Positions 12,837 through 53,152 of a stretch of DNA of 53,996 nucleotides are shown in pieces. The translations under genes and the position numbers were made by a program. The notes under the pieces are model-generated. The model ran no database searches, was not told where the DNA came from, and saw only the letters and a list, made by a program, of their open reading frames with translations. Source of the DNA: an uncultured Syntrophomonadaceae bacterium (GTDB lineage Bacteria; Bacillota; Ch66; Ch109). The stretch covers positions 3,313-57,308 of the forward strand of contig CAZKWP010000002.1 in the NCBI GenBank assembly GCA_964556555.1, in the 5' to 3' direction. Each line of letters starts with the position of its first letter. The stretch's first letter is position 1.

Positions 12837-12872
12837 GGGTTCCACTCCTTCAAGCCTGATTCATGGATTAAA

Positions 12873-13157: not shown

Positions 13158-13237
13158 AAAAAATGGACACCTGACGCCCGCTGGATGCTAGGGCAATCGG
13201 CATCCTTCCCCCTTCCGGAACTAGCGCTATCTTTCAA

Positions 13238-13266
13238 ATTATAGCAAACCCTTATCCCGGTAGCAA
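13238..13266 (-). promoter_or_regulatory. Candidate sigma-A promoter for gatCAB
   Basis: Minus strand reads TTGCTA, a 17-nt spacer, then TATAAT, with TGc immediately upstream of the -10 (extended -10). It sits about 80 nt upstream of the gatC ATG. Confidence 0.5.
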
Positions 13267-13349
13267 CGCAGGAAACGCGCAGTGTCGTCATCCTGCAGTT
13301 AAGAATACAAAATTCATTTCCTAATTATTATCATTCATTAAGAATAAGA

Positions 13350-14207: not shown

Positions 14208-14346
14208 CCCGCTTCACCATCCCCTCCTGCCGTTGATCCCGCTTAAGCCTCGAGCCTAAATTTTCTATTTCGGTTCGGTTTAAACCTAGTTTAACTCGGT
14301 TTTAACTTAATTTAAACCCGGTTTTCCTTTTTAACTTTTGACCTTT

Positions 14347-14856: not shown

Positions 14857-14939
14857 ATAAAAAGAATATTTTGAATATAAATCAGAAATTAATAGTTAAT
14901 TATTAAACCAAATTATTAAAACCAAACTAATTTTAAAAC

Positions 14940-19649: not shown

Positions 19650-23565
<3,916 letters not shown>

Positions 23566-23748
23566 TGTCGGTACCCTTTCGCTCCATTTCACAGATTCTC
23601 TGAACTGACGCTTAAAAGATTATCTTGGCTCAAAGTTTTTAATCCTCGAACTCGGGCTTTTACTTTTTTCGTTTCTGAGTTACAAGCTCTAGCTCAGAGC
23701 TTGTAAGCGTTTAGATATATATTACTTTCAATTAACACTTTAAAATCT

Positions 23749-37203: not shown

Positions 37204-37737
37204 TCAAATGCCAATGAGTCTCTGAGCCAGTTGCTGGGCTAATATTTGAGGCAGAAGATCCCGGTTTTCCGGGGTAACCGTGCGAAGCTCCACTTTTGGA
37301 TGATTTCTGATTCGATCAGTCCAACCTTTGCTGGCCAGTTTTACAACCCCTAAAACTGGTGTGCTGCCATTCAGCGTATCGATAACTTCCTGATGAAAAA
37401 CCAGGGCGTCCCGCTCCAGGCCGCCGCACTCATCCATCAAAATCAAGCCGGAACTGGTTCTGGCGGACCTGATCAGTTCAACACCGCAAATGTCAAACTT
37501 CTGCGTAAAGACCTGGGTTGGACGTCCTCCGGCAAAACGCGCAACCGCATTTTCTTCCCGGAAAATCTTTGGCTTGGCGAAAGAATTCATATACAGCATT
37601 CTATCGGGTGCGTCTCGGTCCGGGCCGAAGTAGGTTTTAAAGCCTCCGATGGTTATCTTCAACAGAGAAAGAGTTTTGGCAATTACCGTGCTTTTCCCAA
37701 CTTGTATTTCACCAGTTAGAAAAATATGCATCTGCAT
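37204..37737 (-). CDS. THEP1/NTPase-family P-loop nucleoside triphosphatase
   Basis: MQMHIFLTGEIQVGKST (Walker A) and LILMDECGGLE (Walker B-like). 177 aa. ATG follows AAAGGAGAT. Confidence 0.6.
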   Translation of the reverse strand: MQMHIFLTGEIQVGKSTVIAKTLSLLKITIGGFKTYFGPDRDAPDRMLYMNSFAKPKIFREENAVARFAGGRPTQVFTQKFDICGVELIRSARTSSGLILMDECGGLERDALVFHQEVIDTLNGSTPVLGVVKLASKGWTDRIRNHPKVELRTVTPENRDLLPQILAQQLAQRLIGI

Positions 37738-37909
37738 ACAGATCTCCTTTGATTTCGAATATTCCCGCTGTTTCATGTTTCATAGATTTATTGTCAACGT
37801 AAAACCGGGCACTTTACGTCATTTTAGGCAATATGGACCGGAAACTTCAACAGTTTTGTAAAGAAGGTGATCGTCATTCTATGTTCTTTCGAATTCTCAG
37901 TAAGGTCAA

Positions 37910-38638
37910 TCAAATAATGTACAGCCACAGCAGGCTTGCGCTGGCCAACACTACCCCGGTCTGCCAACAGTAATCTAGTTTCTTTAATCTTAATTTTCGC
38001 ATATAAGTTCTCTGCGGCAAGGCCCGAAAAGCCCGCGCTTCCATGGCTACAGCCATTTGTTCGGCCCGGTGGATTGCTCCGGAAATAATCGGCAGCATAA
38101 TAAGCGTATAGAGCTTCAGTTTTTGAACGACAGAAATTTTTTGCAGCTCGGTTCCCCGCATCTGCGCCGCATAATATACATTCAGGGCCTCTTCCCGTAA
38201 AAGAGGCAAAAAATGCAGGCCAACCATAACCATGAAAGCTATTTCATAAGGAATCCTCCATTGCACCAGGGCCAGCAAAAAATCCCGTTCCTGGCTGCTG
38301 AGCAGAACCATGGCTGAAATGATAATTATTATAACCCGCAACATTACCGCCAGCCCCATGTTCAATCCCACGTCGGTAATTATTTTGATCCCGTATACGG
38401 TCAGCAATGGCACTCCCGCTCTTGTAAATATACACTGCACCAAAAAAAGCACTGCCAGCAGGGGCAGTATTTTGCGCAGAGTCTGGCTGGCCCTTTTTAG
38501 GTCCGAGCCCACCAAATACAGCATCAGGATACTGAACAGAAGCAAAAACACCAGCCAGAGCGGCTTCTGATATACCACGGCCAGCGCAGAAATACAGATG
38601 ACCATCAGCAGTTTACTGCGGAGATCAAGGTCTCGCAC
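37910..38638 (-). CDS. ECF transporter transmembrane (T) component, EcfT/CbiQ family
   Basis: Multi-TM protein with the MAVAMEARAFR coupling-helix motif typical of EcfT. GTG at 38638 lies 6 nt after GGGGGAG. It overlaps the upstream ATPase gene by 34 nt. Confidence 0.75.
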   Translation of the reverse strand: MRDLDLRSKLLMVICISALAVVYQKPLWLVFLLLFSILMLYLVGSDLKRASQTLRKILPLLAVLFLVQCIFTRAGVPLLTVYGIKIITDVGLNMGLAVMLRVIIIIISAMVLLSSQERDFLLALVQWRIPYEIAFMVMVGLHFLPLLREEALNVYYAAQMRGTELQKISVVQKLKLYTLIMLPIISGAIHRAEQMAVAMEARAFRALPQRTYMRKLRLKKLDYCWQTGVVLASASLLWLYII

Positions 38639-39318
38639 CGCTTTCTCCCCCTTTGATCCTCGATTGCCCGGCCATCCTCCAGACGGATGACCCAATCTGC
38701 ATAGGTTTCAATAAATTTAGTCTGATGGCTTACGAAAATCACTCCGTACCCGTCTGCTTTAATCCTCAGCAGATAATCTCCCAAAAGCTCGCGCCGATAG
38801 GGATCTAAGCCGGCAGTAGGTTCATCCAAAATTACATAACGCGGGTGCGCAGCCAAAATTGCAGCAAGCATCAAGCGCTGTTTTTCTCCCTGGCTCAGGT
38901 TCTGGGGGAAATTTTTGCGATAGCCGGACAGTTCAAAGTAATCCAGGTAATAATTTATCCGACTCTCTATTTCTTCCTGGCTCAATCCCATATTGGTCAG
39001 TCCATACGCAACTTCATTCTCAACGCTCGTACAAAAAAGCTGCTGCGAAGGGTTTTGAAAAACATAGCCGATCTGGCGGCCAATTTCCGCCAGACTCATT
39101 TTACGGATATCGTTTCCGCCCAGGCAGACACACCCCGTGCTGGGCCTTAAGATGCCCACCAAAAGCTTAGTCAGGGTCGTCTTGCCGCAGCCATTGTCTC
39201 CAACTAGGGCGACGATTTCTCCGGGCTTAAAACATAGATTTATCTTCTGCATTACCGCTTGTCGGTTCCCCGGGTAGGTATAACCGAGATTTTCCGTCTC
39301 CAAGAACATATTTCCCAC
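38605..39318 (-). CDS. ECF transporter ATPase component (EcfA-type ABC ATPase)
   Basis: Walker A GDNGCGKTT, signature LSQGEKQR and Walker B YVILDEPTAGLD. The start is GTG 39318 or ATG 39309. Confidence 0.8.
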   Translation of the reverse strand: MGNMFLETENLGYTYPGNRQAVMQKINLCFKPGEIVALVGDNGCGKTTLTKLLVGILRPSTGCVCLGGNDIRKMSLAEIGRQIGYVFQNPSQQLFCTSVENEVAYGLTNMGLSQEEIESRINYYLDYFELSGYRKNFPQNLSQGEKQRLMLAAILAAHPRYVILDEPTAGLDPYRRELLGDYLLRIKADGYGVIFVSHQTKFIETYADWVIRLEDGRAIEDQRGRKRCETLISAVNC

Positions 39319-39367: not shown

Positions 39368-40831
39368 TTATTGACAAATTTGGCGGCTAGACATCGGTTT
39401 TTGCTCCTTTAAAATCGCGTAACGATCGATTTCCTTCACCAGTCCATCGCCTTCCCGGTCATAGGCGTATGCCTGGTACACAAGTCGATTCCCCTCAATT
39501 TTAATTCCGGCAAAAACCGGTTCATCGTTGTCGTCCGGCTCATAGACCGCTTCCGGATAAACCTGGACCGTACTGGATATTTTTCGCGACCCAAACTGGC
39601 TGCCGCTAACGTTGGGGATTATATAGGTCGTACCGGGCGGATTCACCGTAAAATCAATTTTTTCGCCCGCAAAATTCTCGATGCTGCGCTTAGGCTTTTC
39701 AGGCAGCGGGACTACCATCCCGGCTGCTGATTTTGCCAGCACCGCCGAACGCATGTAAACATGGTCATGGCCCTGTAAAACGAGATCAATGCCCAGATCG
39801 CTGATAAGCGGCGCTAACTGAGCGCGCAGGGCAATGATGTCTTCACTGTCCATATGTCGTCCAAAGCTGTAAATGCCTCGGTGCATCAGCAGTATTTTCC
39901 ATTCTATCCCCTGCCGGTCAGCCAGAGCCGCGGTGTTTTTCAACCATTCAACTTGCCGCCCGCTTATTTTTCCATCGCCATTCTGGTAGCCTTCATTCGT
40001 GTTCAACACGAGGAAACAGGTATTCCCGTAATTTACGGCATAATAAGCTCCCGTATCTGTATCGGCGCCGACTGGCGTCAGTTTGTCCAAGGCAAAATGG
40101 CTGCTAAAAACCTCCCGGGTCTGATCATGATTTCCCGCAACCGGTAGAATGGTGGTATTCATTAGTTCCGTTTGGGCAGCCGCAAAAAAATTCTGCCACT
40201 CCGCAAAATTCTCAAAGCTGCCTTCGCTGCTGTAGCTTTGGACAAAATCCCCCAGATAAATCAGGAAATCGGCCTCTGGTACGGTTTGCATTGCCATACG
40301 CAGCGTCTGCGCGCTCAGCCTATAATCCGGCTCATCTACTCCCTGGCTGTCCGCCAGAATAACAAAATCGAAGTCCGCCTCCGGGGGAGCGGTATGAAAG
40401 GTCCCCTTTGCGCTCCAGACCCCCCGTTCAGCATCGCCTACTTTATAGGCATAAGTGGTATCGGCCTTAAGATCCGCAAGGGTTAAACGATGTACGACAA
40501 CCTGCTTTACGAGCGGTTTTCTGCCGGTATACCGTTTTACCGCAGCGCTTTTTCCCTGATAAAGCCTGGCCTTGCTAATAACATTTGCCTCGTTTATATT
40601 TACCTCGATTATCTTATCTTCGGCTATGTCTTCTTCGGCCAGGAGCAGATCGCTGGCGCATTGCGCGTCCGTATACCAGGTAAAACCTCGGCTGCTTTGC
40701 CCATCACCGTTAAAAGTAACACTGATACAGTACGGGACAAAACGTCCACTGCCCGATCCATAAGCAGGGTTTAACGAAAATATAAAAACAATCATCAGGA
40801 TGATGGCAATGGTTTTTAAACCGCGAAACAT
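39368..40831 (-). CDS. Secreted calcineurin-like metallophosphoesterase with a purple-acid-phosphatase-type N-terminal domain
   Basis: Signal peptide MFRGLKTIAIILMIVFIFSLNPAYG. The N-terminal FN3-like part has FTWYTD...YAYKVGD...GTFHTAP. Metal motifs: ILADSQG, LGDFV, AGNHD, LMHRG and QGHDHVY. ATG at 40831 follows GGGAGGGTG. Confidence 0.75.
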   Translation of the reverse strand: MFRGLKTIAIILMIVFIFSLNPAYGSGSGRFVPYCISVTFNGDGQSSRGFTWYTDAQCASDLLLAEEDIAEDKIIEVNINEANVISKARLYQGKSAAVKRYTGRKPLVKQVVVHRLTLADLKADTTYAYKVGDAERGVWSAKGTFHTAPPEADFDFVILADSQGVDEPDYRLSAQTLRMAMQTVPEADFLIYLGDFVQSYSSEGSFENFAEWQNFFAAAQTELMNTTILPVAGNHDQTREVFSSHFALDKLTPVGADTDTGAYYAVNYGNTCFLVLNTNEGYQNGDGKISGRQVEWLKNTAALADRQGIEWKILLMHRGIYSFGRHMDSEDIIALRAQLAPLISDLGIDLVLQGHDHVYMRSAVLAKSAAGMVVPLPEKPKRSIENFAGEKIDFTVNPPGTTYIIPNVSGSQFGSRKISSTVQVYPEAVYEPDDNDEPVFAGIKIEGNRLVYQAYAYDREGDGLVKEIDRYAILKEQKPMSSRQICQ

Positions 40832-40951
40832 CTTACACCCTCCCACCTTACACTCTGGTACCCCGAATTGTTAATAAGGGAAAACGCCAGCTAATAGCCG
40901 GAGTTTCCTGACTTATCGATACTGTTGCCGGAGGCAGCGGCCACCTGCCAG

Positions 40952-41057: not shown

Positions 41058-41798
41058 TCAGCCAAGATACAATCGGTGCCGCTGCAAAAATTTCGTATCT
41101 GCCAGCACCGCCGCCGGACTGTCCAGGCGGATCATTTCACCCTTTTCCATAACCATAAATATGTCCGCAAAATCAACGTTCTCCACATCATGCTCAACGA
41201 TAATCAGCGTTTTCCCCTCTTTACGCAAAGAAAACAGGATCTCGCGCACGAGACGCCGTCCTTTTTCATCCAGCTGGGCCATCGGCTCATCCAAAACCAG
41301 GATCGAGGGCTTAAGGGCCAAAACTGCACCGAGTGACAGCAGCTTTTTTTGCCCCCCGGAAAGTACGGTTGGATTTTTAAAGCGCAAATGATTGAGGCCC
41401 AGCAGATTAAGAATCCCTTCGACGCTTTCCCTTATCTCCTGTGGCGGCCGGCAAAGATTTTCCGGGGCAAAGGCAATTTCATCCTCCACCGTAGTGGTCA
41501 CCAGCTGAACATCCGGATCCTGAAAAACCAGCCCTATTTCCCCGGCCAGTTGGGGCAGTTTGTACGCGGTCGTCTCCCGGCCCTGAATCAAAACCCGTCC
41601 CTTCATATTCCCGCCCAGCACATGCGGCGCGATCCCGCAGAGACACCGGCACAGTGTCGTTTTGCCACAGCCGCTGAGACCGATTATCCCCACAGTTTCA
41701 CCGGCCTCTATAGAAAAATTAATCCCTTTTAATGCGGGCAACGCGGGCTGACCGCCTGGATAGACGTAACCTAAGTCTTCTGCCTTCACCGCCAGCAT
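41058..41798 (-). CDS. ECF transporter ATPase component (EcfA-type ABC ATPase)
   Basis: Walker A GLSGCGKTT, signature LSGGQKK and Walker B ILVLDEPMAQLD. Its ATG overlaps the upstream stop codon (TAATG). Confidence 0.8.
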   Translation of the reverse strand: MLAVKAEDLGYVYPGGQPALPALKGINFSIEAGETVGIIGLSGCGKTTLCRCLCGIAPHVLGGNMKGRVLIQGRETTAYKLPQLAGEIGLVFQDPDVQLVTTTVEDEIAFAPENLCRPPQEIRESVEGILNLLGLNHLRFKNPTVLSGGQKKLLSLGAVLALKPSILVLDEPMAQLDEKGRRLVREILFSLRKEGKTLIIVEHDVENVDFADIFMVMEKGEMIRLDSPAAVLADTKFLQRHRLYLG

Positions 41799-42340
41799 TA
41801 CTTAATCTCCAGTTCGTTAAGATATTTAGTCATCCGGTTGCCAAAGGGATCTGCCGCCAGGATCAGTCTAAAGGGTCCCAGTCCGCCCTCGGCCTTGCTT
41901 TTCAATAATTCGCCGTTCCGCTCATAAGCAATCAGCACCGCATCGGAAGCGATGATTTCCTTTGGGGTCAAAGCCGAAGTAAATCCATCCTCCGCCCGCG
42001 CCAGCACCTGTTCCGCATTCTGCAGCAGCTTTGGATCAGCCAGATCCAGCACATCCCTCATCGACGCTCCTCCCCAGACCTCCGTAGATTTACCCTCACT
42101 GGCCGAATGGATGGTCACCTTTTTCTCCACTTTGGGCAGAGCCTGGATATCATGTAAGGTCAACACCGCGATAACCTCTCCCTGGCTTTTAATGCCGATC
42201 ATTCCCGATCTAATCGACTCCTGGGGACGATTCAGAAAAGCCAGAAACAGGATTCCGACTGCCAAAATTAAGAGAACAATTGCGATAACCCCATATATTT
42301 TTTTATTTTTATTCCTTTGTTGGCGAGCAATCTCACTCAT
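41798..42340 (-). CDS. Membrane-anchored extracytoplasmic protein with one Cys-less SUOX/YedY-like (molybdopterin-oxidoreductase-fold) domain
   Basis: One N-terminal TM segment (IYGVIAIVLLILAVGILFLAFL). The domain pattern is W.G.S.RDVLDL...V.A.AEDGF...LIAYERNGELL....GLGPFRLI....N...KYL..LEI. No candidate Mo-ligand Cys is present. Confidence 0.55.
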   Translation of the reverse strand: MSEIARQQRNKNKKIYGVIAIVLLILAVGILFLAFLNRPQESIRSGMIGIKSQGEVIAVLTLHDIQALPKVEKKVTIHSASEGKSTEVWGGASMRDVLDLADPKLLQNAEQVLARAEDGFTSALTPKEIIASDAVLIAYERNGELLKSKAEGGLGPFRLILAADPFGNRMTKYLNELEIK

Positions 42341-42399: not shown

Positions 42400-43008
42400 C
42401 TACTTCCCGAACTCAACTTCCTGGTCCTGCTTCCCAGGCTGATTGCCGGAGTCAAAATTAACTCCAATTTTATACTTGCGTAAAGCCTGTAAAACCTGCC
42501 AGGCCAGAATGCCCCCCAGACCTCCTGAAAAAGCAGCCGCACAGACTGATAACAGCAAGGGAAGCACCGGCAGCTGGAAGAAAATCAGATTTACTGTCAA
42601 AGTACCGGCCACGTTGGCCAGCATCCCCCCGATAAAACAACAAATCAGGCAGCAGGCCTTATGTCTGCCGATTAAGAAAAGCCCGGCGTCAACCGCCACG
42701 CCCGGCAACGTATAGCTCAGCAGGGACATTAGTCCGTGTGAACCGATTACCCCGGTCCCAATAACCATCAAAGCCTGTACCAGACCAATCAGGATCGCCG
42801 CACCATATTTACGGACCAGACCTAACCCCACTACCAGCCAGAACATGTAAAAGCCCCCGGCCAGCGAACCCCCTGGGATAAACAGGGGGCCGGTAATCAG
42901 GTGGGCCAGCGGCACGATAATTGGTTTGGTGGCGACCCCCAGAGCAGCCATTACGGCAATCAGTACCAGGTCATACGTGGAAAAACGGCGCATCATTTTT
43001 TGCAGCAT
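42400..43008 (-). CDS. ECF transporter substrate-specific (S) component-like membrane protein, specificity unknown
   Basis: 202 aa with about 6 TM segments, small and Gly-rich. It opens with RRFSTYDLVLIAVMAALGV, as many S components do. It lies in a cluster with EcfA/A'/T. ATG follows GGAGGAGGG. Confidence 0.6.
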   Translation of the reverse strand: MLQKMMRRFSTYDLVLIAVMAALGVATKPIIVPLAHLITGPLFIPGGSLAGGFYMFWLVVGLGLVRKYGAAILIGLVQALMVIGTGVIGSHGLMSLLSYTLPGVAVDAGLFLIGRHKACCLICCFIGGMLANVAGTLTVNLIFFQLPVLPLLLSVCAAAFSGGLGGILAWQVLQALRKYKIGVNFDSGNQPGKQDQEVEFGK

Positions 43009-43047: not shown

Positions 43048-43887
43048 CTATTCAACCACAATCCTTGAGATCAGGGATACCCATTTAAGCCGATTATACT
43101 CTCCGGCAAACTGTTGACCCATAACCAGGCGGAAGGGAGCTCCTTGGCTGGCTTCGTATTCCTGGCCGTCCTGGGACCAGGCGATGATCATGCGCAGCTT
43201 TTTGCTGCTGTCGGTTTCATCAAGATAGTCGGCCTTCAGGTCTTTAGGGCTAAAAACCTGAACATAACCGTCTTCAGCGATAACCCTTACCTGGCTGGCC
43301 GAATCCTTAAGACCCACCTTATCCGCCAACAACTCGTATAAAAGCACCCCGGTAAAATCATTGTGGCTGGCTTTGGCCCAGCCGGGCTTTTCTGCTCCGC
43401 GGGAAAAATACTTGGCTGTTACCGTGAGGTTTTTCATTTGCTTTAATTCATTAAGGGAATACTCCTGGCTGGTTTTAACCCCAGCCCCGGTGATTCTGAT
43501 TTTCGCCGGGTCCGCTTGTCGGTTTGCCGATGCAGCACCAGTCTTTCCTTTGGCTGCAGCATCCCCCGCACCAGCGCTGCCCGCTGAATTTTTATCCTCA
43601 CTGTCCTTAACCTCAGCTTTATCCTCATTAGTGTTAACCCCGGCCTTATCATCATTGGCCAAACCCTCATTAATCTTACCCCCGCCAATTACCTGATCAG
43701 CGCCAGCCGGCTTTTCTTCCGGCATGTTTGACACAGAATCTTCAGTCTCTGGAACTTCTCCCGGGACCTGAACCAGGCTGGTCTCAGGCCCTGATAGTTC
43801 GGTATTTTGGTCACCTGGCTTACTGCAGCCCCCGATGCTCAAAAGCATGATAAATAGCAAAAGCCATACTCCGGCTTTAAACCGCAC
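43048..43887 (-). CDS. Lipoprotein with a low-complexity linker and one C-terminal Cys-less SUOX/YedY-like domain
   Basis: GTG at 43887 lies 6 nt after GGGAGGG. Lipobox LLSIGGC. The linker is rich in D, K, A and G. The C-terminal domain reads FTGVLLYELL...VIAEDGY...GAPFRLVMGQQ...LKWVSLISRIVV. By eye it is about 40% identical to the C-terminal domain of the 1755-aa protein. Confidence 0.6.
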   Translation of the reverse strand: MRFKAGVWLLLFIMLLSIGGCSKPGDQNTELSGPETSLVQVPGEVPETEDSVSNMPEEKPAGADQVIGGGKINEGLANDDKAGVNTNEDKAEVKDSEDKNSAGSAGAGDAAAKGKTGAASANRQADPAKIRITGAGVKTSQEYSLNELKQMKNLTVTAKYFSRGAEKPGWAKASHNDFTGVLLYELLADKVGLKDSASQVRVIAEDGYVQVFSPKDLKADYLDETDSSKKLRMIIAWSQDGQEYEASQGAPFRLVMGQQFAGEYNRLKWVSLISRIVVE

Positions 43888-43973
43888 TGCATTCCCTCCC
43901 TTTTGCCCAAACATAAGCAGCCATTCTTCCAAAAACATGTCTGCCTATCCAGATTCGTCTGCGCGGCGTACGG

Positions 43974-46900
43974 CTAATCTACCACAATTTCCTGCACAGA
44001 GTTAACCCAGTTTTGCCGGTTGAAATCCCCTTCATATTTTTGCCCCATTACTAGCCGAAACGGCTGTTTTGACGTGTACTTATACTCCTGATTATTCTGC
44101 GCCCAGGCAATAATCATTTCCAGCTCAGCGCGCGGCTTCGTCTCGTCTATATATAAACCTGAAATTTCTTCCATAGTATAAACTTTGGTCATCCCGTCAC
44201 TGGCAACCACCTTTATTTGGTCAGGATAGTTTTTCAGACCTATTTCATCCAGCAGCAGCTTATAAAGTGACACCCCGGTAAACCGGTCATGCTGCTGTGC
44301 TGCCCAGCCGGCTTTGGCTTTACCTCGGGAATAATAGGATTCACTTACTTGAATGTCGGTCATAGCCTTCAAATCGTCCAGGGTATAGACCCGTTTTTGG
44401 GTCAGAGCAGAACCCTTGAAAACGATAGTCCCGTCTTCGCCCTCCTGGTCGTAGTTATTGCCGGGCGAGGATTTTTCAGCCGGTACGATTGCCGTATTCT
44501 CTTCCGCTGCCGCACTGCGCTCATCGAGAAAACCAGCGGTCCTCAGTAAGGCAGCCACCATGACCGCAGCTTCAGCCCGGCTGGTTTTATCCTGGGGTGC
44601 GAAACTCCCGTCAGCCCGGCCCTTTATGATACCGGCCTGCACCGCCGCGGCCACCGCTGGAGAAGCCCAGGCCGCGATCCCTGGCTGGTCGTTGAATCGG
44701 GATAGAATCTGGTCCCTTTCTGCCGCAGCCAGTTCGGTTTTTACCCCGGTCAACTGCAGGGCATTGACCAGCATTACTACGGCTTCCTGCCGGCTGATGT
44801 TTTGCTGCGGTTTAAAGGTGCCGTCTGCCATACCGTTAACGATTTTCCCCTGAGCCGCAGCGCCGACACTGCCCGCATACCACTCTTTTCCGCTGATGTC
44901 GCTAAAAAGAACTGCTGGCTCTGCTTGGTCTGTTAAACCTAACGCTCTGGTCAGCATGGCCGCAAATTCAGCTCTGGTTGTCGGGCCGTTCGGCTCAAAT
45001 TCGCTGCCGCTTTTTCCATTCAGCATCATTTTGGAGGCCAGCATCTCTACCTCCGTTTTCGCCCAATGGCTCTGCATATCCGCAAAAGCTTTGCCGCCGG
45101 AAACAACGGCGTAGACGCTGTTACTCAAGCTGTAGGCCCGGGCATAGGTCTGACCATTGCGTTCAATAAAAACGGCCGGCACGACCCGGGGGGTGTTGCC
45201 GTTCTCCTCCCAGCACAAGACCGTCCCCTGAGCCGGAATCAACTTGGCATTCAGCGGCAGGTCTCTAAATATATAGGACGAAAACTCACTGATCTTGATT
45301 TGTTTTTCCCCGGTCACGCAGAAAATTTCCGTACTCATTGGAACACTGTGCAAACTGTAATCATCCGTTAGGGAAGACATCAACTGATTCTTCTGCGCTT
45401 CTTCAAGCACCGTGCTCATTTTGAGCTGCAGCCGGAAATCAGTACTTCCGGCTTTTTCCGCCAGCCCCGTCAGATCCAGGGCCTCCGCCGGAATCACATA
45501 GGCCCCCTGGGCTATATTCAACTGCAGATACATCCCTTTTTCCTGCATCAGCGCCAGCAACTCACGGCTGATCTCCAGGACAGCGGCCGTCGCCTTTTCG
45601 GAAGCGCCAAACAGCAATACCGAACCATTTTCCGCTGCCAAAGCCGCTTGCTTAGCTTCCGGCTTTAGTTCAATCTTTTCTGTCCCGGCTCCATCTGTGG
45701 ATTTTTTAGCGTATAGCTCCATGTCTATACTCGGCTGATTTGGTAAAGCCGATAAATCCGCCGCGTTTTGGGTCGTCACCGCTGCGTCAGTCCTATAAAA
45801 TGGCCGTAACCCAAGTCCGCCGCCTCCACCGCCGCCAGATCCACCGGGAGCATCCGTTTTTTCCGTTACATCGTAAGCCAGAAAGTACTTCTCGTCCTGA
45901 TCCTTCAAGTCTCCCAAGCGAAGGGTCTTTTCCAGTTGGCCGCCGATAAGCAGCTCCGTTACATTTTCAAGCTTGCCGGCCACATAATAAAGCGTGACTC
46001 CACCCGCCGGGGCAGTAACAAAACTAACCGGATCGTTATCATCCAGGCCTTCGAAATCGTTTAGAAGACGGCCCAGGGATATCCCCTCCCCGGTATCCCC
46101 TTGCTGATTAAGCTTTTCCATTCCCTTCAACAGAAGGTCGGGGAGATTATAAGCCAATTTTTTAGCCAATCCACTTCCGGAAATACTGAATATGGGCGCA
46201 TTTTTATCGCCGATGACGATCTGCTGCACGTACTTATTGTTGTACTGGTTATTAAAATCCTCCCGGCTCGTCTGACCTAACATCAGGGTCGGCAAGGGGA
46301 ATTGCTCCACCTCAGTCAGTTCATCCGGGGTTGGCCGATGGGGGTTGCTGTCGTCTTCATTACTCTCCGCCCGATACAGGGCCAGGATGGGATCAATCGG
46401 ACCGCTTTCCCCATTATCACCCGGCAGCAGGTCAGCAAAGTAGTATCGCTGCGGTTCAAAACTTTTGCTGGATCCGTCGTAAGTAAGATCTACCCGGTTC
46501 GTGTCCGAACTGATTGTCTTAACCAGGCAGCGGTCGGTTCCAACTCCCGCCTGCTGCAGCAGCGCTCCCAGATCCAGGCCCTGGGCGCTGATCATGGTCT
46601 TAATCCCCCCTCGGGCTAAAACGGAATAAGTTCTGAATTCACGCTCAATCTTCGCCTGCTCACCGGCAGCAATACTTTCCAGTTCATCCACCGTAAAATA
46701 CATCAGCTTAGGAATACCGGTGCCGGAGATCACCAGTCCAACATCAATGATCCCAGTCGGTTCATCCTCTTTTTCATAGTATAGATTTATTACGTTATTT
46801 TCCGAGGCACCGGCGCTCAGACTAAGGCTGTCATTCTCCGCCCGGCTATATGCATAGCCGGCAACCTGGATTTCTTCATTGGCTGCCGCAATAATTTCCC

Positions 46901-49241
46901 CATCAATTCCCACACTGACTTTAGCCGCGGCTATCGCCTCTCCACTGGCCTGGTCCAAATAATTCACGGTATAGGCTGCCGGGTCCCCGTCGCCAACCAC
47001 AATCCCGGCAACATATTTGACACAGAGCGGTTTGGCGTTCTCCACGATCAGCCGCAGAGGGCCGTAACCGTTGTCCGCTTCCGCCGCGTAACCATCTGCC
47101 GGCTCAAGACTGTTCACCAAAGGATATCCATCCTTGGCATAGGCCAAAACTACTGGTTTGATCGCTCCGTTCTGCGTGGTGCTGCTGATCCCGGACCACA
47201 CATCGTCAACCGATAATTGTTTGGCAAATACGGATCCGTCAACATTAGGGCTGCATACCGTTATTTTGGCCGGCAGATCGTCGATTCCGGCTGCCTGCAA
47301 TAGATATTTAAGGTTTAGGCCCTCGTAATAGCCCATCACTTCTGAAGCCGCCAGATACTCTCGGACAATCCCGGCCTCCATCGCTTCTAACTTGCGCAGG
47401 GAATATACGGCTGGCTGTTTAAACGCACTGCCGCAGATTCGCAGAAAAGTTGTATCCAAATAAGAAGCGTACGGGGCTTCCCGGTCATGTTTCCAGCTCC
47501 TGGTCGCCTGAGCGGTTACCTTCACTTGGACAACCTGATCAAGACAACGCGCCGCGTCTCCATTTACCACCAGATACAGCGGCCCTCCGCTATTGGCAGA
47601 ACTCGCCGCGTAGCCTTGGTCCTGTTCCGAAGGCACCAATGGTTTACCATTCTTCCCATAAACCAGCATTACTTTCAGATCGCTGCTTTGCAGTTCGTCC
47701 AACGTAAAACTGACCGCGCTTCCATCCTGCGCAGAGACTTCGATCCGCTCCGTTTCCAGCTTCAGGCCTAATTTATCACTAGTCAGCAAACTGTAAAGAT
47801 TGATTCCACGGTAAACTGCCGTTTCCGTGCCAACTGTGTAACTATCCTCTTTTATCAGTTCCAGGAACTGTTCCAGATTTTCAACGGTAAAATCCTGGGT
47901 TACATTTAAGCCGTCACCGGTAAAGGTGATCTGATTGTTTTTCCATTGGGAAAAGGGTTCAGTCGTATGCTTACAGGTATCCGATACAATGTAAACATTT
48001 ATGCCGGTGCATTTCTGCACCAAACCCGATGACAAGTAGGTTTCATGCTGGGGCAGGGCAGCCAGCAGCGGACCATTTTCCTGCAGGGGTTCTCCATTTT
48101 GCGCATAAGCCAAAACCGGTTTTACCCAGCTAAGCTGCAGGCCCTCTTTGGTTGTATAGTAAGCTGAATAATCTTTACTGGGATTTAATATATAATCCAG
48201 ATTGAGGCGGCTCGATTCCTGCCCGTCAGCCTCTACAATACTGAACTCGCCTTCGTTGCCGGTTAACCCGAATTTCTCCGCCAGTAAATAATAAATATCA
48301 ATGCCTTCATAATAATTGGCAGCCGGATCGGGGTAATAATTGCGCGTCAGGGCGGCCTGCCTGGCATTGACCATTGCTTCAACTTCATTGACCGTATATG
48401 TTTCACTGTTCACCAATTCGGAAGTAGACGAATCTATCAGCTGGATCAACAGCTGATTTTCCGCATACTGGCTGTAGGGAGCACGGTCATGCTGAGTACT
48501 CTTAACATCATCGCCCACAACGATCTTGGTCAGCAATTTACTGTTGTACTGGGCATTGTTGCTACCGGGCGCAGTCTGACCAAACGTGATTTTTAGCGGG
48601 CCGCCGCCATTGGCATGTTCTTCAATCAATCCTGGAATACTGGTATCAAACCAGTCTTGAAAACCAATCGGCCCCACCAGGGGATAGCCGTTAGAGGCAA
48701 AAGCCACCATGACCGGCAGATTGTCCGCCTGGGATTCTCCCGCTTCATTATAGTAGTGGTATTGTTCGGTATGGCGAATAGCGCCCAGCGTATGCAGGGA
48801 ATTGTAGCCATCCTTGGCCATAATTTTAACTTCCGTGCTGTCTGGCAAGTCAGGATCCAGGCCTCCCTGCACCAGCAATTCGTAGAGACGCACTCCGCTC
48901 AAGGTATATGATTTATATTTCCCTTCACTGCCAGTAATGCTGTAGCTTACATCACAGCCAAACACTGGGTCCGCATAGAGGTTCTCCAGGTCTTTTACCG
49001 CATAAATCTTTTCTCCCTGTTGCATTCCTGAACCGCTTAGCGTAAGCGTGTCATACCGGTATTCCGGCTTGCCGTAATCTGAATCGGCGGGATAACTGCC
49101 ATGCCGGGGCTCATTATTCAGCGTCTGACTAATTTCTTGGCCGCTTGTCTCTCCAAAAAGCCCGTTCCCGGGTAAGGCCACCATGACCATGAGCAGACTA
49201 AGCAGCAAAAGCATTTTAAATACGTTATTTCTTCTCAGCAT
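43974..49241 (-). CDS. Giant secreted SLH-domain envelope protein with about 7 SUOX/YedY-like domains
   Basis: Signal peptide MLRRNNVFKMLLLLSLLMVMVAL. Repeated units of about 160-180 aa share the pattern [LY]..LL...G[LI]......[IV]...A.DG...NG.PL...GP[LF][RK]L. One MucBP-like segment is present (YTVNYLD...INLYYEKE), plus a G8 linker. Three SLH repeats (FADMQSHWAKTEVE..., FSDISGKEWYAGSV..., FNDQPGIAAWASPAV...) precede a final SUOX-like domain. ATG follows GGGGAGGGG. Confidence 0.7.
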   Translation of the reverse strand: MLRRNNVFKMLLLLSLLMVMVALPGNGLFGETSGQEISQTLNNEPRHGSYPADSDYGKPEYRYDTLTLSGSGMQQGEKIYAVKDLENLYADPVFGCDVSYSITGSEGKYKSYTLSGVRLYELLVQGGLDPDLPDSTEVKIMAKDGYNSLHTLGAIRHTEQYHYYNEAGESQADNLPVMVAFASNGYPLVGPIGFQDWFDTSIPGLIEEHANGGGPLKITFGQTAPGSNNAQYNSKLLTKIVVGDDVKSTQHDRAPYSQYAENQLLIQLIDSSTSELVNSETYTVNEVEAMVNARQAALTRNYYPDPAANYYEGIDIYYLLAEKFGLTGNEGEFSIVEADGQESSRLNLDYILNPSKDYSAYYTTKEGLQLSWVKPVLAYAQNGEPLQENGPLLAALPQHETYLSSGLVQKCTGINVYIVSDTCKHTTEPFSQWKNNQITFTGDGLNVTQDFTVENLEQFLELIKEDSYTVGTETAVYRGINLYSLLTSDKLGLKLETERIEVSAQDGSAVSFTLDELQSSDLKVMLVYGKNGKPLVPSEQDQGYAASSANSGGPLYLVVNGDAARCLDQVVQVKVTAQATRSWKHDREAPYASYLDTTFLRICGSAFKQPAVYSLRKLEAMEAGIVREYLAASEVMGYYEGLNLKYLLQAAGIDDLPAKITVCSPNVDGSVFAKQLSVDDVWSGISSTTQNGAIKPVVLAYAKDGYPLVNSLEPADGYAAEADNGYGPLRLIVENAKPLCVKYVAGIVVGDGDPAAYTVNYLDQASGEAIAAAKVSVGIDGEIIAAANEEIQVAGYAYSRAENDSLSLSAGASENNVINLYYEKEDEPTGIIDVGLVISGTGIPKLMYFTVDELESIAAGEQAKIEREFRTYSVLARGGIKTMISAQGLDLGALLQQAGVGTDRCLVKTISSDTNRVDLTYDGSSKSFEPQRYYFADLLPGDNGESGPIDPILALYRAESNEDDSNPHRPTPDELTEVEQFPLPTLMLGQTSREDFNNQYNNKYVQQIVIGDKNAPIFSISGSGLAKKLAYNLPDLLLKGMEKLNQQGDTGEGISLGRLLNDFEGLDDNDPVSFVTAPAGGVTLYYVAGKLENVTELLIGGQLEKTLRLGDLKDQDEKYFLAYDVTEKTDAPGGSGGGGGGGLGLRPFYRTDAAVTTQNAADLSALPNQPSIDMELYAKKSTDGAGTEKIELKPEAKQAALAAENGSVLLFGASEKATAAVLEISRELLALMQEKGMYLQLNIAQGAYVIPAEALDLTGLAEKAGSTDFRLQLKMSTVLEEAQKNQLMSSLTDDYSLHSVPMSTEIFCVTGEKQIKISEFSSYIFRDLPLNAKLIPAQGTVLCWEENGNTPRVVPAVFIERNGQTYARAYSLSNSVYAVVSGGKAFADMQSHWAKTEVEMLASKMMLNGKSGSEFEPNGPTTRAEFAAMLTRALGLTDQAEPAVLFSDISGKEWYAGSVGAAAQGKIVNGMADGTFKPQQNISRQEAVVMLVNALQLTGVKTELAAAERDQILSRFNDQPGIAAWASPAVAAAVQAGIIKGRADGSFAPQDKTSRAEAAVMVAALLRTAGFLDERSAAAEENTAIVPAEKSSPGNNYDQEGEDGTIVFKGSALTQKRVYTLDDLKAMTDIQVSESYYSRGKAKAGWAAQQHDRFTGVSLYKLLLDEIGLKNYPDQIKVVASDGMTKVYTMEEISGLYIDETKPRAELEMIIAWAQNNQEYKYTSKQPFRLVMGQKYEGDFNRQNWVNSVQEIVVD

Positions 49242-49295
49242 ATTGGCCCCTCCCCATGTTTCTTCGCTAAAACAAAATTAATTCCGCTTCTCAAA

Positions 49296-49330
49296 CGTCC
49301 TCCTGACCTTAAAAAAGGCCAGGAGGACGC
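49296..49330 (-). terminator. Hairpin between the two giant genes (terminator or attenuator)
   Basis: Minus strand reads GCGTCCTCCTGGCC-TTTTTTAA-GGTCAGGAGGACG followed by TTTGAG. It starts about 25 nt after the 1265-aa gene's stop. Confidence 0.55.
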
Positions 49331-49354
49331 AAGAAAACGGATTCTACCTTAATA

Positions 49355-52300
49355 CTATTGTTGTCCCAAAGCTCTGGCGATCACGGATACCGCTTCCGCT
49401 CTGGTCGCGTTCGCCTGGGGTCTGAAGGTCTGATCCGGATAACCCGACATCAGTTTAGCCGCAACGGCACTCGCTGCCGCATCCCGCGCCCAGGTTGCAA
49501 TGCTGCTGGTGTCGGTAAAATGCAATTCACCGGATTGGGCTGCTATTTTTTCTGCCCGCACGATCATCAAGGCCATTTGTTCCCGGGTAATCGGGTCATC
49601 CGGGCCAAACGCCGTGTCGCTGTATCCGGTTATAATGCCATTGGCAGCAGCGGTGGCAATCGCTTCCCTGGCCCAGTGGCTGCCCGTGTCCGCAAAAATC
49701 TTACCGTCCGTTGCGGTCAGTTTATAGGCTTTGACCAGTACCGTCGCAAATTCAGCTCTGGTAATCGTGTTGTCTGCTTTGAAGCTGCCATCTGGATAAC
49801 CGGTGATGGCTCCTGCGGCTACCAGGTTTTTAATGCTCGCCTCAGCCCAGTGACCCTTAATGTCGTTTAACTGACTCGGCTGAGTCGGTTGGGCTGGCTC
49901 GGTTGGTTCAGTTGGCTCGGCTGGCTCAGTCGGCTCAACGTCCTTATCCTTGCTGCTGCCGGAGCTGGACGAACCGCCACCTCCTCCGCCTCCCCCACCG
50001 GACGAGACTATTTCCAGACCTTCCGCTGCCGCCACTAAGACGTCAACGTCTTTGCCGGCCGGGGTATAGTCCGTGGCAGCAGACCCGGTTATATTTTCCC
50101 CGGTGCCGGGAATAATAATTTTGGCGTCGTTGTAGGTTACGGTCACCCGTTTACCTTCTGGTATATTGGTACTGGTCTTGGATTGGGTGTTATTGTAAGC
50201 GGCAAAATAATCAGCTATGTTTTTCGTTATATCTGTCTTGGTCCCATCGTTGGCTACCAGCTTAATCGTATATTTGCCGCTTAGGCCGCTGACCAAATCA
50301 CTTAGCCATACCCCGTTATATCGGTAGTACATCGGTCTTGAATAACCGTATGGAGGGGTATTAGCGTTGGCGTCAGGCACCTGTTCGCTCATGGCCATTA
50401 AATCAGTATAGGTGTAATTTGTCGTGGTTTTGCTTATGGCATTCTTTACATAAAAATAGGTGTCCTCGGTGTATTGGAAAGTTATGACCTGTTCTGCCGG
50501 CGCTCCGCTGCCCACGGTAATCAGTACCGGACTGGTCTGTCCGGCCGCTAAAGCGGCATTGGTGACTGCCGGTGCTTTGACCGCGTACTGCATGCCTGGA
50601 AGCAAACCTTTAAGGGTTAAGTCGTTTCTGACTTTTAAGGTTGGATTCTTGTCACTGACCGAGGTTACAACACAACCGTTTTTGCCGGATAACAGCGCAC
50701 CATCCGGGCTGATTACAACGCCCATCATATACTTCATAACTGCAGAATTGGCGCCGCCGGTATCTCTGTATACTCTTAAATAGCCGGAATTATTATCGGC
50801 ATCCTTAAATACCCCGGCCGGGTCGTTTACATTGTACGCATCAGGGTTTGCGTACTCTTCGTGAATTGCATACGTAACGATCGGACGCAGCGGATTTTTG
50901 GTGCTTCCGCTGCCGCCAATTGTTGATTTGGTTAAGCTTTCAATGGTGTCTTTATAATTTGAGTCAATGACGGCCGTTGCGGCGTCCGCATGATAACCGT
51001 CTTCCTCGGAATACTGGACTACCATATCCTCCGTAATCGACACGCCTTTTAAATCATTAAGCAAATCGGTTAATAAGGCTCCTTTACAGGTAACCGTTTT
51101 AATGACGCTGTGGTCATCATACGTGTAAGCCTCTTGGGTTTCGTAGGTCTCCAATTCCGCTTTCGTATAATAATAGTATTTTGTCTCGCCGGAAGCGTCC
51201 TTTAAGGCAATATAAAATACGGAATTATTGATATCTCCTCCTGGTTCCCGGTCACCCACGATACTTTCGGCTGTCCATTTTGCATAAAACTTAACATCAT
51301 CGACAATTGTGTACGGGAAGACAACTTGGTTGGTCAGTCCCGCATCGGTGTACCAGCCTTCAAGTTCAGAGCCTTCCTTGGTGGTCACTGGCGCTGTGTC
51401 TATCGTTGCGCCAGATACCCCAGTTATGCTGGCAACCGCAGTGCCGCCGTTTTCTTCAAAGCTTACCGTATAGGTCTGGCTTACCTCGTTAACTGAAGCA
51501 CCCACCACATTTTCAATTAATACCCTATCCTCGGTTTGCCCGGGGCAGTATATCCTTAAGGGGGTCAGACTGCCCGAAACCCGTTCGCTGCGCTCGCTGT
51601 CTGCAAAAGCGTCAAACGCCACAAAGCATCTGCTTATTTCGCTGGAACTGATGCTGCGGCTCGAAGCAACCGTTCCGCTGCCGTCATTAACCTTAATGAT
51701 CAAATCTTCATTGCTGGGAACCGTGACACCAAGTTCTGTCAATAAAACGCTCAACGGAACGCCGGTAACGCTCTGGGCAACCAGGGTGCCGCCGTTATTC
51801 CAGGAATACGAGGTTTCATAAATGCCGATCAGAGCGATATCCGACAAAGAGATAGATTTTGTATTGCTGTCCTGGGTAATTATAAAGGCGGGGTCAACCT
51901 TCCCAGCTCTGATTTTGTTCGTGTTTTTAACAAATTTGCAATTGGTTTCTTCGGTCGGTTCCGTTTGCCCATACGCAAATAAAGGATTGGCATCGGCTAT
52001 TGCTTCGGTTACGGTTGGAACTTCTAAACTGGAATCAGGGGTTGAGGTGGTTACTTTATCGTCATAAAAAATTAAAATCGGATCAACCACTGGGCCTACG
52101 GTCCCATCCGGAGCAATGTAATTGCGGCTCACGGTATGGCTGAAAGCATCACTGACTATAGCGGTGTAACCATCGGTTGCTGTCGCCTCAATCGCCACCG
52201 GTGCACTGTTCACATCTGCACCCAAGGCGGTCAGGACCGTCTTTAAATTGATTCCTTCCGCCAATCGATATACATATTCGGGCGTACCATGGTTATCATA

Positions 52301-53152
52301 GGATGAGTAAAGCATCGGGGTACTCGTCCACGAATCGCCCAAGCCCAGACCGTCTACGCTTTTATTCGCTTTGATCGAATCAACCTGATCCTGGCTGAGG
52401 TAAACAAAGCTGTTCCGCAATCCCGCTCCATTGGTTATTCCGGTTCCACCGATCACTAATCCGGTCTGATCAGGAACGAGCAGGTCTAACCCGGCGCCAT
52501 TATCAATAAGCTCCACCGCCGAACCGTCTGACTGGATTATCTGCAAGGAGCTGATCAAGCGCATATAGGTGGTATTGCCGAATCTGTCTATGGAAAAATC
52601 CCCGCCCCGGTTTCTCGCTATCCGACAATAAGTGGCCGGATAGGTCACCGACGGGTCAGTATCTTTGTATCCGACAGATGGTTCCGAGGTATCGTTTACT
52701 TTATGGGTCAACAGGTAATGATTGGCTGCGTAATCCTTCGCCTCAGCAACCGTAAAGGGAGCGTTGGTATAGGCATCACTGCAAACCGCTTTTATCTGAT
52801 AATCATCCGCTAAGGTTAGGTCGAGCGTGTCTTCTGCATCCGCTAAAAGGTCGGCCAATTTTATTCCGCAGCAGGTTTCGTGCAAGCCTTCATCATTTTC
52901 GGTATAAATATCAGATGTCGCCTGCCCCGCAAACTTATACCCCGTCGCTCCGGTAATATCCCCCCAGGTATACGGCAGGGTTTGCCCGCCTATCTCTACA
53001 TTTAACACCACGACATCGTTTGCTGGATCGGGTATCGGTGTCTGCAAAGTTTTGGCTTGTGCCGCCGGGGCTTGAACCAGCATAAAACTCAGCATAAACA
53101 TGATCAAAACTATACTGCTTATGTATTTTTTTAAGTTTCCGTTTCTAAGCAA
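49355..53152 (-). CDS. Giant secreted SLH-domain envelope protein with about 5 divergent SUOX/YedY-like domains and a Listeria-Bacteroides (Flg_new) repeat
   Basis: TTG start after GAGGAG. Signal peptide ...FMLVQAPAAQA. Divergent repeats have cores such as GINLKTVLTALG...ATDGY, GVPLSVLLTELG...NDGSG...PLRIY and GALLTDLLNDLKG...EEDGY. One YTVSFEENGGT...LEGWYTD...FYAKW repeat is present, plus a G9/S-rich and PTEP linker. Three C-terminal SLH repeats follow (IKGHWAEASIKNL..., TGSHWAREAIATA..., SSIATWARDAAAS...). Confidence 0.7.
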   Translation of the reverse strand: MLRNGNLKKYISSIVLIMFMLSFMLVQAPAAQAKTLQTPIPDPANDVVVLNVEIGGQTLPYTWGDITGATGYKFAGQATSDIYTENDEGLHETCCGIKLADLLADAEDTLDLTLADDYQIKAVCSDAYTNAPFTVAEAKDYAANHYLLTHKVNDTSEPSVGYKDTDPSVTYPATYCRIARNRGGDFSIDRFGNTTYMRLISSLQIIQSDGSAVELIDNGAGLDLLVPDQTGLVIGGTGITNGAGLRNSFVYLSQDQVDSIKANKSVDGLGLGDSWTSTPMLYSSYDNHGTPEYVYRLAEGINLKTVLTALGADVNSAPVAIEATATDGYTAIVSDAFSHTVSRNYIAPDGTVGPVVDPILIFYDDKVTTSTPDSSLEVPTVTEAIADANPLFAYGQTEPTEETNCKFVKNTNKIRAGKVDPAFIITQDSNTKSISLSDIALIGIYETSYSWNNGGTLVAQSVTGVPLSVLLTELGVTVPSNEDLIIKVNDGSGTVASSRSISSSEISRCFVAFDAFADSERSERVSGSLTPLRIYCPGQTEDRVLIENVVGASVNEVSQTYTVSFEENGGTAVASITGVSGATIDTAPVTTKEGSELEGWYTDAGLTNQVVFPYTIVDDVKFYAKWTAESIVGDREPGGDINNSVFYIALKDASGETKYYYYTKAELETYETQEAYTYDDHSVIKTVTCKGALLTDLLNDLKGVSITEDMVVQYSEEDGYHADAATAVIDSNYKDTIESLTKSTIGGSGSTKNPLRPIVTYAIHEEYANPDAYNVNDPAGVFKDADNNSGYLRVYRDTGGANSAVMKYMMGVVISPDGALLSGKNGCVVTSVSDKNPTLKVRNDLTLKGLLPGMQYAVKAPAVTNAALAAGQTSPVLITVGSGAPAEQVITFQYTEDTYFYVKNAISKTTTNYTYTDLMAMSEQVPDANANTPPYGYSRPMYYRYNGVWLSDLVSGLSGKYTIKLVANDGTKTDITKNIADYFAAYNNTQSKTSTNIPEGKRVTVTYNDAKIIIPGTGENITGSAATDYTPAGKDVDVLVAAAEGLEIVSSGGGGGGGGGSSSSGSSKDKDVEPTEPAEPTEPTEPAQPTQPSQLNDIKGHWAEASIKNLVAAGAITGYPDGSFKADNTITRAEFATVLVKAYKLTATDGKIFADTGSHWAREAIATAAANGIITGYSDTAFGPDDPITREQMALMIVRAEKIAAQSGELHFTDTSSIATWARDAAASAVAAKLMSGYPDQTFRPQANATRAEAVSVIARALGQQ

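Follow-up and report, generated by a model that had tools for sequence, protein, structure and literature searches.

Two giant SLH genes head an ECF-type operon

We analysed a 53,996-nt stretch of DNA (contig CAZKWP010000002.1; hereafter the window, to which all coordinates refer unless another locus is named) from an uncultured anaerobic digester bacterium of the Syntrophomonadaceae, and focused on two giant genes for S-layer homology (SLH) proteins, P0001 (1755 aa, 43974..49241) and P0002 (1265 aa, 49355..53152), which were located from the open reading frame list, Pfam and a profile search. The sequencing runs with matching DNA were bioreactor metagenomes (DNA runs). Both genes, their domains and the operon genes described below lie on the minus strand, and the two genes together occupy 9179 bp, in agreement with the roughly 9 kb stated in an earlier note on this DNA. 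Each protein carries three tandem SLH motifs and a general secretion (Sec) signal, as expected of an SLH protein (Pfam; signals read by eye). The two giants head an operon that continues with a lipoprotein, a PF09819 S component of the energy-coupling factor (ECF) transporters, a small membrane-anchored protein, EcfA, a phosphoesterase, EcfA′ and EcfT. Each giant is a string of copies of a single sulfite oxidase (SUOX)/PruR-like domain, and the lipoprotein and the membrane-anchored protein have one further copy each.

P0002 starts at a TTG codon with GAGGAG 13 nt upstream. Behind its Sec signal lie copies B1 (residues 42-209, 52526..53029), B2 (residues 227-419, 51896..52474) and B3 (residues 420-554, 51491..51895), a Flg_new (Listeria-Bacteroides repeat) spacer (residues 561-625, 51278..51472; Pfam E 2.4e-12), copy B4 (residues 639-817, 50702..51238), an immunoglobulin (Ig)/MucBP-like beta-sandwich spacer (residues 822-890, 50483..50689) and copy B5 (residues 891-1052, 49997..50482). 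The protein then runs through a Gly9/Ser/PTEP linker seen in the sequence (residues 1053-1094, 49871..49996) into the SLH triad (residues 1095-1265, 49358..49870; Pfam SLH E 3.3e-43 over three stretches), so that the triad is C-terminal behind the linker, as the earlier note had described.

P0001 is arranged differently. Its Sec signal is followed by copies A1 (residues 57-245, 48507..49073), A2 (residues 260-416, 47994..48464), A3 (residues 429-579, 47505..47957) and A4 (residues 591-752, 46986..47471), an Ig/MucBP-like spacer (residues 753-826, 46764..46985; Z 6-7 to the IgA peptidase C-terminal domain and Amy12), copy A5 (residues 827-1013, 46203..46763) and a truncated, degenerate copy, A6w (residues 1014-1128, 45858..46202), which retains only the N-terminal half of the unit and for which the orthologue P0020 also gives a weak match. 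A Gly-rich linker at about residues 1132-1142 leads into a pre-SLH region, and the approximately 240 aa that precede the SLH triad are of the SLH-associated type; a Protein Atlas look-up with residues 1130-1445 returned only SLH-protein clusters. The triad itself (residues ~1385-1570, 44532..45089; Pfam SLH E 1.5e-38 over three stretches) is internal, and a 30-aa linker separates it from one more domain, A7 (residues 1597-1755, 43977..44453), the same placement that had been read earlier from the letters.

The repeats share a SUOX/PruR-like fold

With Pfam alone, Oxidored_molyb was recognised only in the last domain of P0001 (A7, E 1.1e-13), the lipoprotein and the 180-aa membrane-anchored protein, and the rest of the giants gave only the SLH triads and the one Flg_new match. 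A profile was seeded on these three domains and iterated, which recovered all the other copies. Because iterated profiles can inflate themselves, we performed a leave-one-out test, in which each copy was scored by a profile built without that copy and compared with 100 shuffles of itself. All copies exceeded their shuffles, A1-A5 and A7 with 22-108 bits and B1-B5 with 14-19 bits against shuffle maxima of 1.8-7.3. Individual scores were 48.8 bits for A1, 41.1 for A2, 53.0 for A3 and 21.9 for A5, 17.4 for B1 (shuffle maximum 3.0) and 19.2 for B3 (shuffle maximum 4.2), while the truncated A6w reached 10.6 (shuffle maximum 5.5); A4 and B2, the latter being the first half of a cassette at residues 217-559, were placed by the same leave-one-out profile. 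The copies are 150-190 aa long, and the estimate of about seven and about five units resolves into six clear copies plus one partial copy in P0001 and five in P0002.

The fold was assigned from sequence profiles and structure models. When the 13-copy profile was run against the PDB sequences, PruR (7kom) was the top match (E 1.7e-7, 113 of 138 residues), followed by SorA (E 1.5e-6). An AlphaFold2 model of P0002 residues 633-1050, built with 28 homologues, had a predicted local distance difference test (pLDDT) score of 85.7; in it, B4 matched PruR (7kp2) best (Z 11.4, root-mean-square deviation (rmsd) 2.8, 125 of 138 residues), with sulfite oxidase (1sox) and SorA at Z ~10, and B5 matched SorT (Z 9.2, rmsd 4.6, 114 aa aligned). 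The approximately 75 residues separating B4 from B5 were modelled as an Ig/MucBP-like sandwich (Z ~7 to Amy12, SraP and MucBP domains). The AlphaFold model of P0001 residues 40-1140, built with 11 orthologues, had a pLDDT of 67 with domain cores at 70-90, and here A1 matched sulfite oxidase (3hbg, Z 14.5) and PruR (Z 13.8, rmsd 2.7, 131 aa) and A3 matched SoxC (2xts, Z 14.9, rmsd 1.9, 121 aa). The structural matches cover A1, A3, B4 and B5 (Z 9.2-14.9), and A2, A4, A5 and B1-B3 were assigned by the profile test. Since models and profile place the units in the SUOX/PruR fold, the giants are not heterogeneous series of Ig/FN3-type spacers; the copies are of one fold, as the earlier note had supposed, and the Ig-like spacers sit between them. 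Taken together, these results establish the repeat architecture and the SUOX/PruR-like fold of the units.

The copies lack the catalytic features of SUOX enzymes

The Pfam Oxidored_molyb matches raise the question of whether these proteins are genuine surface-displayed oxidoreductases of the SUOX family, of the sulfite oxidase or MsrP-like kind, that depend on the molybdenum cofactor (Moco). Weak NCBIfam matches to SorA and SoxC would fit this, as would the fact that some Moco riboswitches control Moco-dependent enzymes. However, at the level of the alignment the Mo-ligating Cys was not conserved at or near the aligned position in any of 14 copies, and A7, the lipoprotein copy, the membrane-anchored copy, A6w and B5 contain no Cys at all. 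The SorA and SoxC scores were far under the curated cut-offs of these enzyme families, no dimerisation or haem domain was found in the giants with Pfam, and the signal peptides carry no conserved twin-arginine translocation (Tat) motif, the RR of P0001 being RK, KR or absent in its orthologues and the n-region of P0002 carrying KK. We therefore regard the enzymatic explanation as extremely improbable.

Further, we compared the residues around the putative pocket. The copies have in common an invariant Gly ahead of the first helix and an invariant Asp in a D-G motif. The D-G motif aligns with the pterin-contacting N-x-Y of PruR; it is followed by Tyr or Phe in 6 of 13 copies and by a small residue otherwise. 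Most copies carry an aromatic residue after a conserved Lys near the C-terminus, although its mapping to W160 of PruR is uncertain, and the hairpin that bears the Cys in the enzymes ranges among the copies from as short as in PruR to intermediate length. A check of pocket conservation across the repeats showed that the putative pocket residues vary from position to position. These features suggest that the copies are non-catalytic, cysteine-less domains of a type that would bind small molecules.

The arrays are linked to a dedicated ECF module and a secreted phosphoesterase

Downstream of the giants, the lipoprotein gene (43048..43938) encodes a lipobox, LLSIGGC, read from the sequence, and one copy of the domain at residues 138-296 (Pfam Oxidored_molyb). 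It is followed by the S component (42400..43008; PF09819, Pfam E 1.6e-13, 51 bits), which is the sole PF09819 gene of the source genome and for which a phmmer search against the PDB sequences retrieved no ECF S component, and by the 180-aa protein with one Pfam-recognised copy behind an N-terminal membrane anchor (41798..42340). Library matches identified the remaining genes as EcfA (41058-41798), a secreted purple-acid-phosphatase-like (PAP-like) phosphoesterase with a signal peptide (39368-40846), EcfA′ (38605-39318) and EcfT (CbiQ; 37910-38695). The S component thus shares the operon with a dedicated set of two ECF-type ATPases (EcfA and EcfA′) and an EcfT (CbiQ), as is characteristic of group I ECF transporters. 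The last gene of the operon (37204-37776) encodes a THEP1-type P-loop NTPase; at locus L020 its counterpart after EcfT (5651-6430) is a MobB plus Fe-S gene, MobB being the GTPase of molybdopterin guanine dinucleotide (MGD) synthesis.

This arrangement is not confined to the source genome. In orthologous contigs (45-86% identity) the gene order is kept from the giant SLH arrays through to EcfT, with a Cu_amine_oxidN1-anchored copy added, and distant loci (25-38% identity) carry the same gene set. Five distant genomes with multiple copies were compared, and in all five the only PF09819 gene is located no more than ~6 kb from the SUOX-like cluster. The linkage of arrays, PF09819 S component and phosphoesterase is therefore conserved across many families of Clostridia. 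The phosphoesterase is PAP-like, plain Metallophos or ENPP-type Phosphodiest depending on the locus, and at L008, a second SUOX-like locus of the source genome (contig C107), it is part of a 1587-aa fusion protein (35-4798) in which a PAP-like phosphoesterase is joined to two Shr-like HID domains, an NHL/beta-propeller and, at the C-terminus, a SUOX-like domain. This swapping of families, together with the fusion to the SUOX-like domain, argues for a phosphorylated or dinucleotide substrate. The neighbouring L008 gene (6222-7661) encodes more than 480 aa, with a SUOX-like domain first and then CHB_HEX_C, Fn3_assoc and a Shr-like HID domain.

We also co-folded the S component with the membrane-anchored copy. 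The score was 0.54 against 0.00 for the best control, the runs agreed in at least 57% of contacts, and the pLDDT of the partner was at least 77. Of 80 solved complexes, 58 reach the co-folding mark, as do 2 of 110 mismatched pairs, and scores of 0.60 or less occur in only 7 of the 80 solved complexes, plus both mismatches that passed. The model thus lends weak support to a contact between the two proteins.

Some distant loci carry SUOX-like domains fused, in membrane-proximal position, to an FMN_bind domain with the flavinylation motif ITGATVT (L009, 24539-25573; L011, 7812-9425). These two distant fusions would suit an extracytosolic redox system, in which the domains hold a redox-active pterin or flavin supplied by an ECF exporter and serve electron transfer or substrate reduction across the wall and S-layer. 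Firmicutes do possess ECF-type exporters serving extracytosolic flavoproteins, such as EetB/FmnA for flavin adenine dinucleotide in Listeria (PMC9973259), and pterins are redox-active, with PruR preferring the reduced form (PMC11194511, PMC13259868). However, neither ApbE nor FMN_bind was found in the source genome (94.7% complete), a membrane electron-input module is missing from the operon, and the copies lack the Mo-ligand Cys. Moreover, the S component belongs to PF09819 and not to PF07456, the family of EetB (PMC9973259), and secreted phosphoesterases are conserved partners of the system. We consider such a redox role distinctly unlikely.

Relatives place the system under Moco riboswitch control

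We compared the coordinates of the riboswitch for Moco and its tungsten form (W-co), RF01055, with those of the domain in 19 other carrier genomes. RF01055 was found at or inside the cluster in 15 of the 19, with less than one chance adjacency expected by a rough estimate (~100 riboswitches, ~2.5-Mb genomes and ~20-kb clusters). It lies 95 nt before the gene of a 2471-aa SLH array at L009 and 46 nt before that of a 2238-aa array at L026 (genome G116). At L025, in a genome of the same family, one riboswitch stands 130 nt before the gene of a 1232-aa SLH/SUOX-like protein and another 126 nt before the next SUOX-like gene. At L020 RF01055 directly precedes the S component, the membrane-anchored copy, the ECF genes and MobB, and at L021 it precedes a SUOX-like gene, an ENPP gene and a second SUOX-like gene. 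The system is thus controlled by Moco riboswitches in relatives, and this placement, which the earlier note had not seen, is the strongest functional clue that we obtained.

The same evidence bears on whether another small molecule might be captured and imported, such as a non-Moco pterin, a folate fragment, a flavin, thiamine or hydroxymethylpyrimidine (HMP), a 7-deazaguanine, or tungstate or molybdate. PF09819 includes YkoE, the S component for thiamine/HMP, the known substrate class of this family. PruR binds simple pterins rather than Moco, extracellular phosphoesterases are typical of vitamin salvage, and Moco riboswitches control Mo/W uptake genes as well. One such unit adjoins the system at L010, where an RF01055-controlled transporter of the ATP-binding cassette (ABC) type with a substrate-binding protein (SBP_bac_1/11, BPD_transp_1, ABC_tran), together with DUF364, lies convergent with it (11743-15436) and looks like a tungstate or molybdate uptake operon. 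Against these ligands, the riboswitches used by the relatives are those for Moco and not those for thiamine pyrophosphate, flavin mononucleotide, tetrahydrofolate or preQ1; the source genome has ThiC, RibH and FolP; MobB follows the ECF genes at L020; and in the case of oxyanion uptake the phosphoesterase would have no role. We judge a ligand of this kind to be rather unlikely.

A leader block of ~170 nt upstream of P0002 (53201-53364) is ~80% identical to the leader of L028, the locus of an 84%-identical orthologous operon, with diverging flanks; it had no Rfam match and folded no better than its shuffles (z -0.31).

The P0001 array is old and P0002 is a mosaic of cassettes

The copies share only 15-28% identity with copy A1. 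Orthologues of P0001 are colinear, 1743-1763 aa long and 63-86% identical, and in a maximum-likelihood tree of 55 domains each position of P0001 clusters with the same position in the orthologues (support 99-100). Among orthologues the positions are 71-83% identical, with A4 at the top (82.5%), compared with 63% for the Ig spacer and 60% for A6w, and the linkers are likewise less conserved than the positions. Since the positions are orthologous across relatives and more conserved than spacers and linkers, the P0001 array is old and each of its positions has been maintained. The selection on distinct modules that the earlier note had argued for fits this pattern of conserved positions, indicative of purifying selection, with putative pocket residues specific to each position. 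The note had also taken A7 for the closest paralogue of the lipoprotein domain at about 40% identity; we found 41% over 158 aa, and the two domains form one clade with the Cu_amine_oxidN1-anchored paralogue of relatives (support 93/91).

P0002 has a different history. It is a mosaic of cassettes that recur in proteins with other parts or anchors, namely cohesin, dockerin, FIVAR and CFI-box-CTERM proteins, residues 217-559 (B2-B3) at ~70% identity and residues 633-1050 (B4-Ig-B5) at ~80%. Some relatives carry tandem duplications of P0002 cassettes, with identical copies in P0040. The view that the repeats are highly diverged and not recent duplications therefore holds for the two proteins of the window, given their low identity to A1 and the position clades of P0001, whereas the P0002 cassettes of relatives have been duplicated and shuffled recently. 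Run against 1.84 billion representative proteins, the profile matched only 1610 at E<=1e-3, and 106 reached E<=1e-30; giants with up to 12 copies are frequent among the matches. Of 401 genomes sampled from the phylum, 55 have the domain, and the named relatives are all metagenome-assembled genomes (MAGs), from Syntrophomonadaceae, Clostridia, Clostridiales and Firmicutes UBA5493.

The recurrence of P0002 cassettes on cohesin, dockerin, FIVAR and CFI-box-CTERM proteins could be taken to mean that these are adhesive or structural proteins associated with the S-layer, whose SUOX-like fold would serve generically for binding or as a scaffold, for example towards partner cells or polymers, the link to a transporter being incidental. 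Ig/MucBP-like spacers and Flg_new are indeed typical of adhesins. However, the linkage to ECF genes and phosphoesterase extends across many families, single-domain paralogues adjoin the S component, and in relatives the giant genes themselves are under riboswitch control. We find an adhesive function very improbable.

A proposed wall-spanning capture system

Given these results, we propose that the locus encodes an antenna that spans the wall, captures a molybdopterin-type cofactor or precursor and supplies the ECF importer, a reading in which we infer ligand binding, ligand identity, hand-off and import direction, and for and against which we hold the balance to be about even. Both giants would be Sec-exported, SLH-anchored antennae, with their binding domains held apart by Ig-like spacers, and the S-layer arrays would catch the ligand first. 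The most likely cargo would be a molybdopterin-type pterin (the Mo/W cofactor, its dinucleotide forms or a precursor) released from lysing neighbours in the anoxic digester, and the secreted phosphoesterase may trim phosphate or dinucleotide forms ahead of import. From the S-layer arrays the tiers would lead inward through the Cu_amine_oxidN1-anchored copy (in relatives), the lipoprotein copy and the membrane-anchored copy by the S component, so that the ligand would pass by way of wall-, lipid- and membrane-anchored single-domain copies to the PF09819-type ECF module, which would import it. The relay geometry that the earlier note suggested may hold, with outer domains on the S-layer side and one domain towards the membrane; the orientation of A7 relative to the wall is likewise something we infer, the side that it faces not being readable from sequence. 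More tentatively, and with somewhat less confidence than in the capture antenna as such, we suggest that both SLH giants act as outermost receivers in a hand-off chain scavenging from the environment the finished Mo/W pterin cofactor, or else its dinucleotide or precursor forms, for delivery to the ECF importer, with the diverged positions specialised for the individual forms.

Several points weigh against this proposal. Free Moco is chemically unstable, and no ECF transporter is known to use extracytoplasmic binding proteins. The pterin-stacking aromatic equivalent to the Tyr of PruR is kept in only 6 of the 13 copies, the PW motif of PruR is absent, with Y and then S or T aligned at that place, and the short cleft of PruR cannot hold a whole Moco according to its authors (PMC11194511). 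The fusions to flavinylatable FMN_bind at some distant loci hint at redox chemistry. Moreover, no riboswitch was detected in the window at the Rfam gathering threshold or in the leader at E<=5, and RF01055 is also absent before the 84%-identical orthologous operon and in the cluster of a same-genus relative. The source genome has three Moco/W-co riboswitches elsewhere (C77:5641-5758, C102:2965-3082 and C23:3520-3669), that on C77 divergent from MoeA; this regulator is therefore in use in the source organism, though not for the operon described here.

The cofactor synthesis genes also belong on this side. With MoaC and two MoeA in its genome, the source organism does not stand out as a Moco auxotroph. 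Its genome gave no MoaE match, and a same-genus genome gave a weak one. No MoaE was found in 16 of the 20 carrier genomes searched, nearly closed assemblies among them, or in the majority of the phylum sample; carriers of the system are not depleted in it, with MoaE in 10 of 55 carriers and 41 of 346 other genomes. Either these organisms have a divergent molybdopterin synthase or the step is missing.

Comparison with known systems

The closest characterised protein is PruR, a Cys-less SUOX fold shown to bind pterins (Atu3496 of A. tumefaciens; PDB 7kos, 7kou, 7kom, 7kp2 and 7rkb; PMC11194511). Like PruR, the copies are secreted, of ~150 aa, and of a Cys-less truncated SUOX fold without catalytic domains, and PruR is their best PDB profile match and their top or near-top structural match. 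However, PruR is a single-domain proteobacterial signalling protein encoded beside a DcpA-type cyclic di-GMP enzyme, while the proteins described here have up to seven copies each (12 in relatives), SLH anchors and ECF and phosphoesterase neighbours in Clostridia-type MAGs. Instead of a DcpA-type GGDEF/EAL or histidine kinase partner, the operon has ECF parts and a phosphoesterase. Because both the PW motif and the signalling context of PruR are lacking, we file the domain as PruR-like and not as a member of PruR. With the Moco domains of SUOX enzymes (1sox, SorA 2blf, SoxC 2xts and YedY/MsrP 1xdq) the copies share the fold (Z 10-15) and the motifs G-[VI]-x-L, D-G and G-P-[LF]-R-L, but they lack the Mo-ligating Cys and the dimerisation, haem or other catalytic partner domains, and the proteins use Sec instead of Tat.

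In overall plan, the system resembles the NEAT haem relays of Gram-positives (Isd, and in B. anthracis the SLH-anchored BslK and the five-NEAT IsdX2), in which one small ligand-binding domain, repeated on envelope proteins with S-layer or wall, lipoprotein and membrane anchors, leads to an ATP-driven importer (PMC7759979, PMC2515342), and a corresponding hand-off would take place here. The folds are unrelated, as no NEAT domain was found here by Pfam, and the importer is ECF-type whereas theirs is a binding-protein-dependent ABC transporter. The dedicated module and the small membrane-anchored accessory beside the S component recall group I ECF importers such as YkoEDC and CbiMNQO with its accessory CbiN, although known ECF systems are without extracytoplasmic binding proteins or S-layer arrays.

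The general view is that every cell makes its own Moco and W-co. Our literature search returned no description of SLH arrays of this domain, of ECF transporters with such partners, or of bacterial Moco or pterin import, and according to a 2026 review it is unknown how pterins cross membranes (PMC13259868). If the proposed function is right, this would be a bacterial uptake system for Moco or W-co, of which we found no description, and its ECF transporter would be the first to rely on extracytoplasmic binding domains. It would change the views that Moco is made only within the cell that uses it and that ECF transporters work without binding proteins, and would point to cofactor sharing in syntrophic, tungsten-dependent communities. 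The surface family is riboswitch-linked, its members have as many as twelve PruR-like domains, and many uncultured anaerobic Clostridia combine it with a dedicated ECF module; the system yields testable parts in its small soluble domains and its five-gene importer.

Two further observations were made in relatives. At L009, from a Clostridiales MAG, an AbiEi/AbiEii toxin-antitoxin pair (23185-24542) is inserted within the SUOX-like/ECF cluster. P0046-P0051, P0056 and P0057 carry the B4-Ig-B5 and B2-B3 cassettes at 54-80% identity alongside cohesin or dockerin domains, and relatives may thus display SUOX-like modules via cohesin-dockerin assemblies besides SLH anchors.

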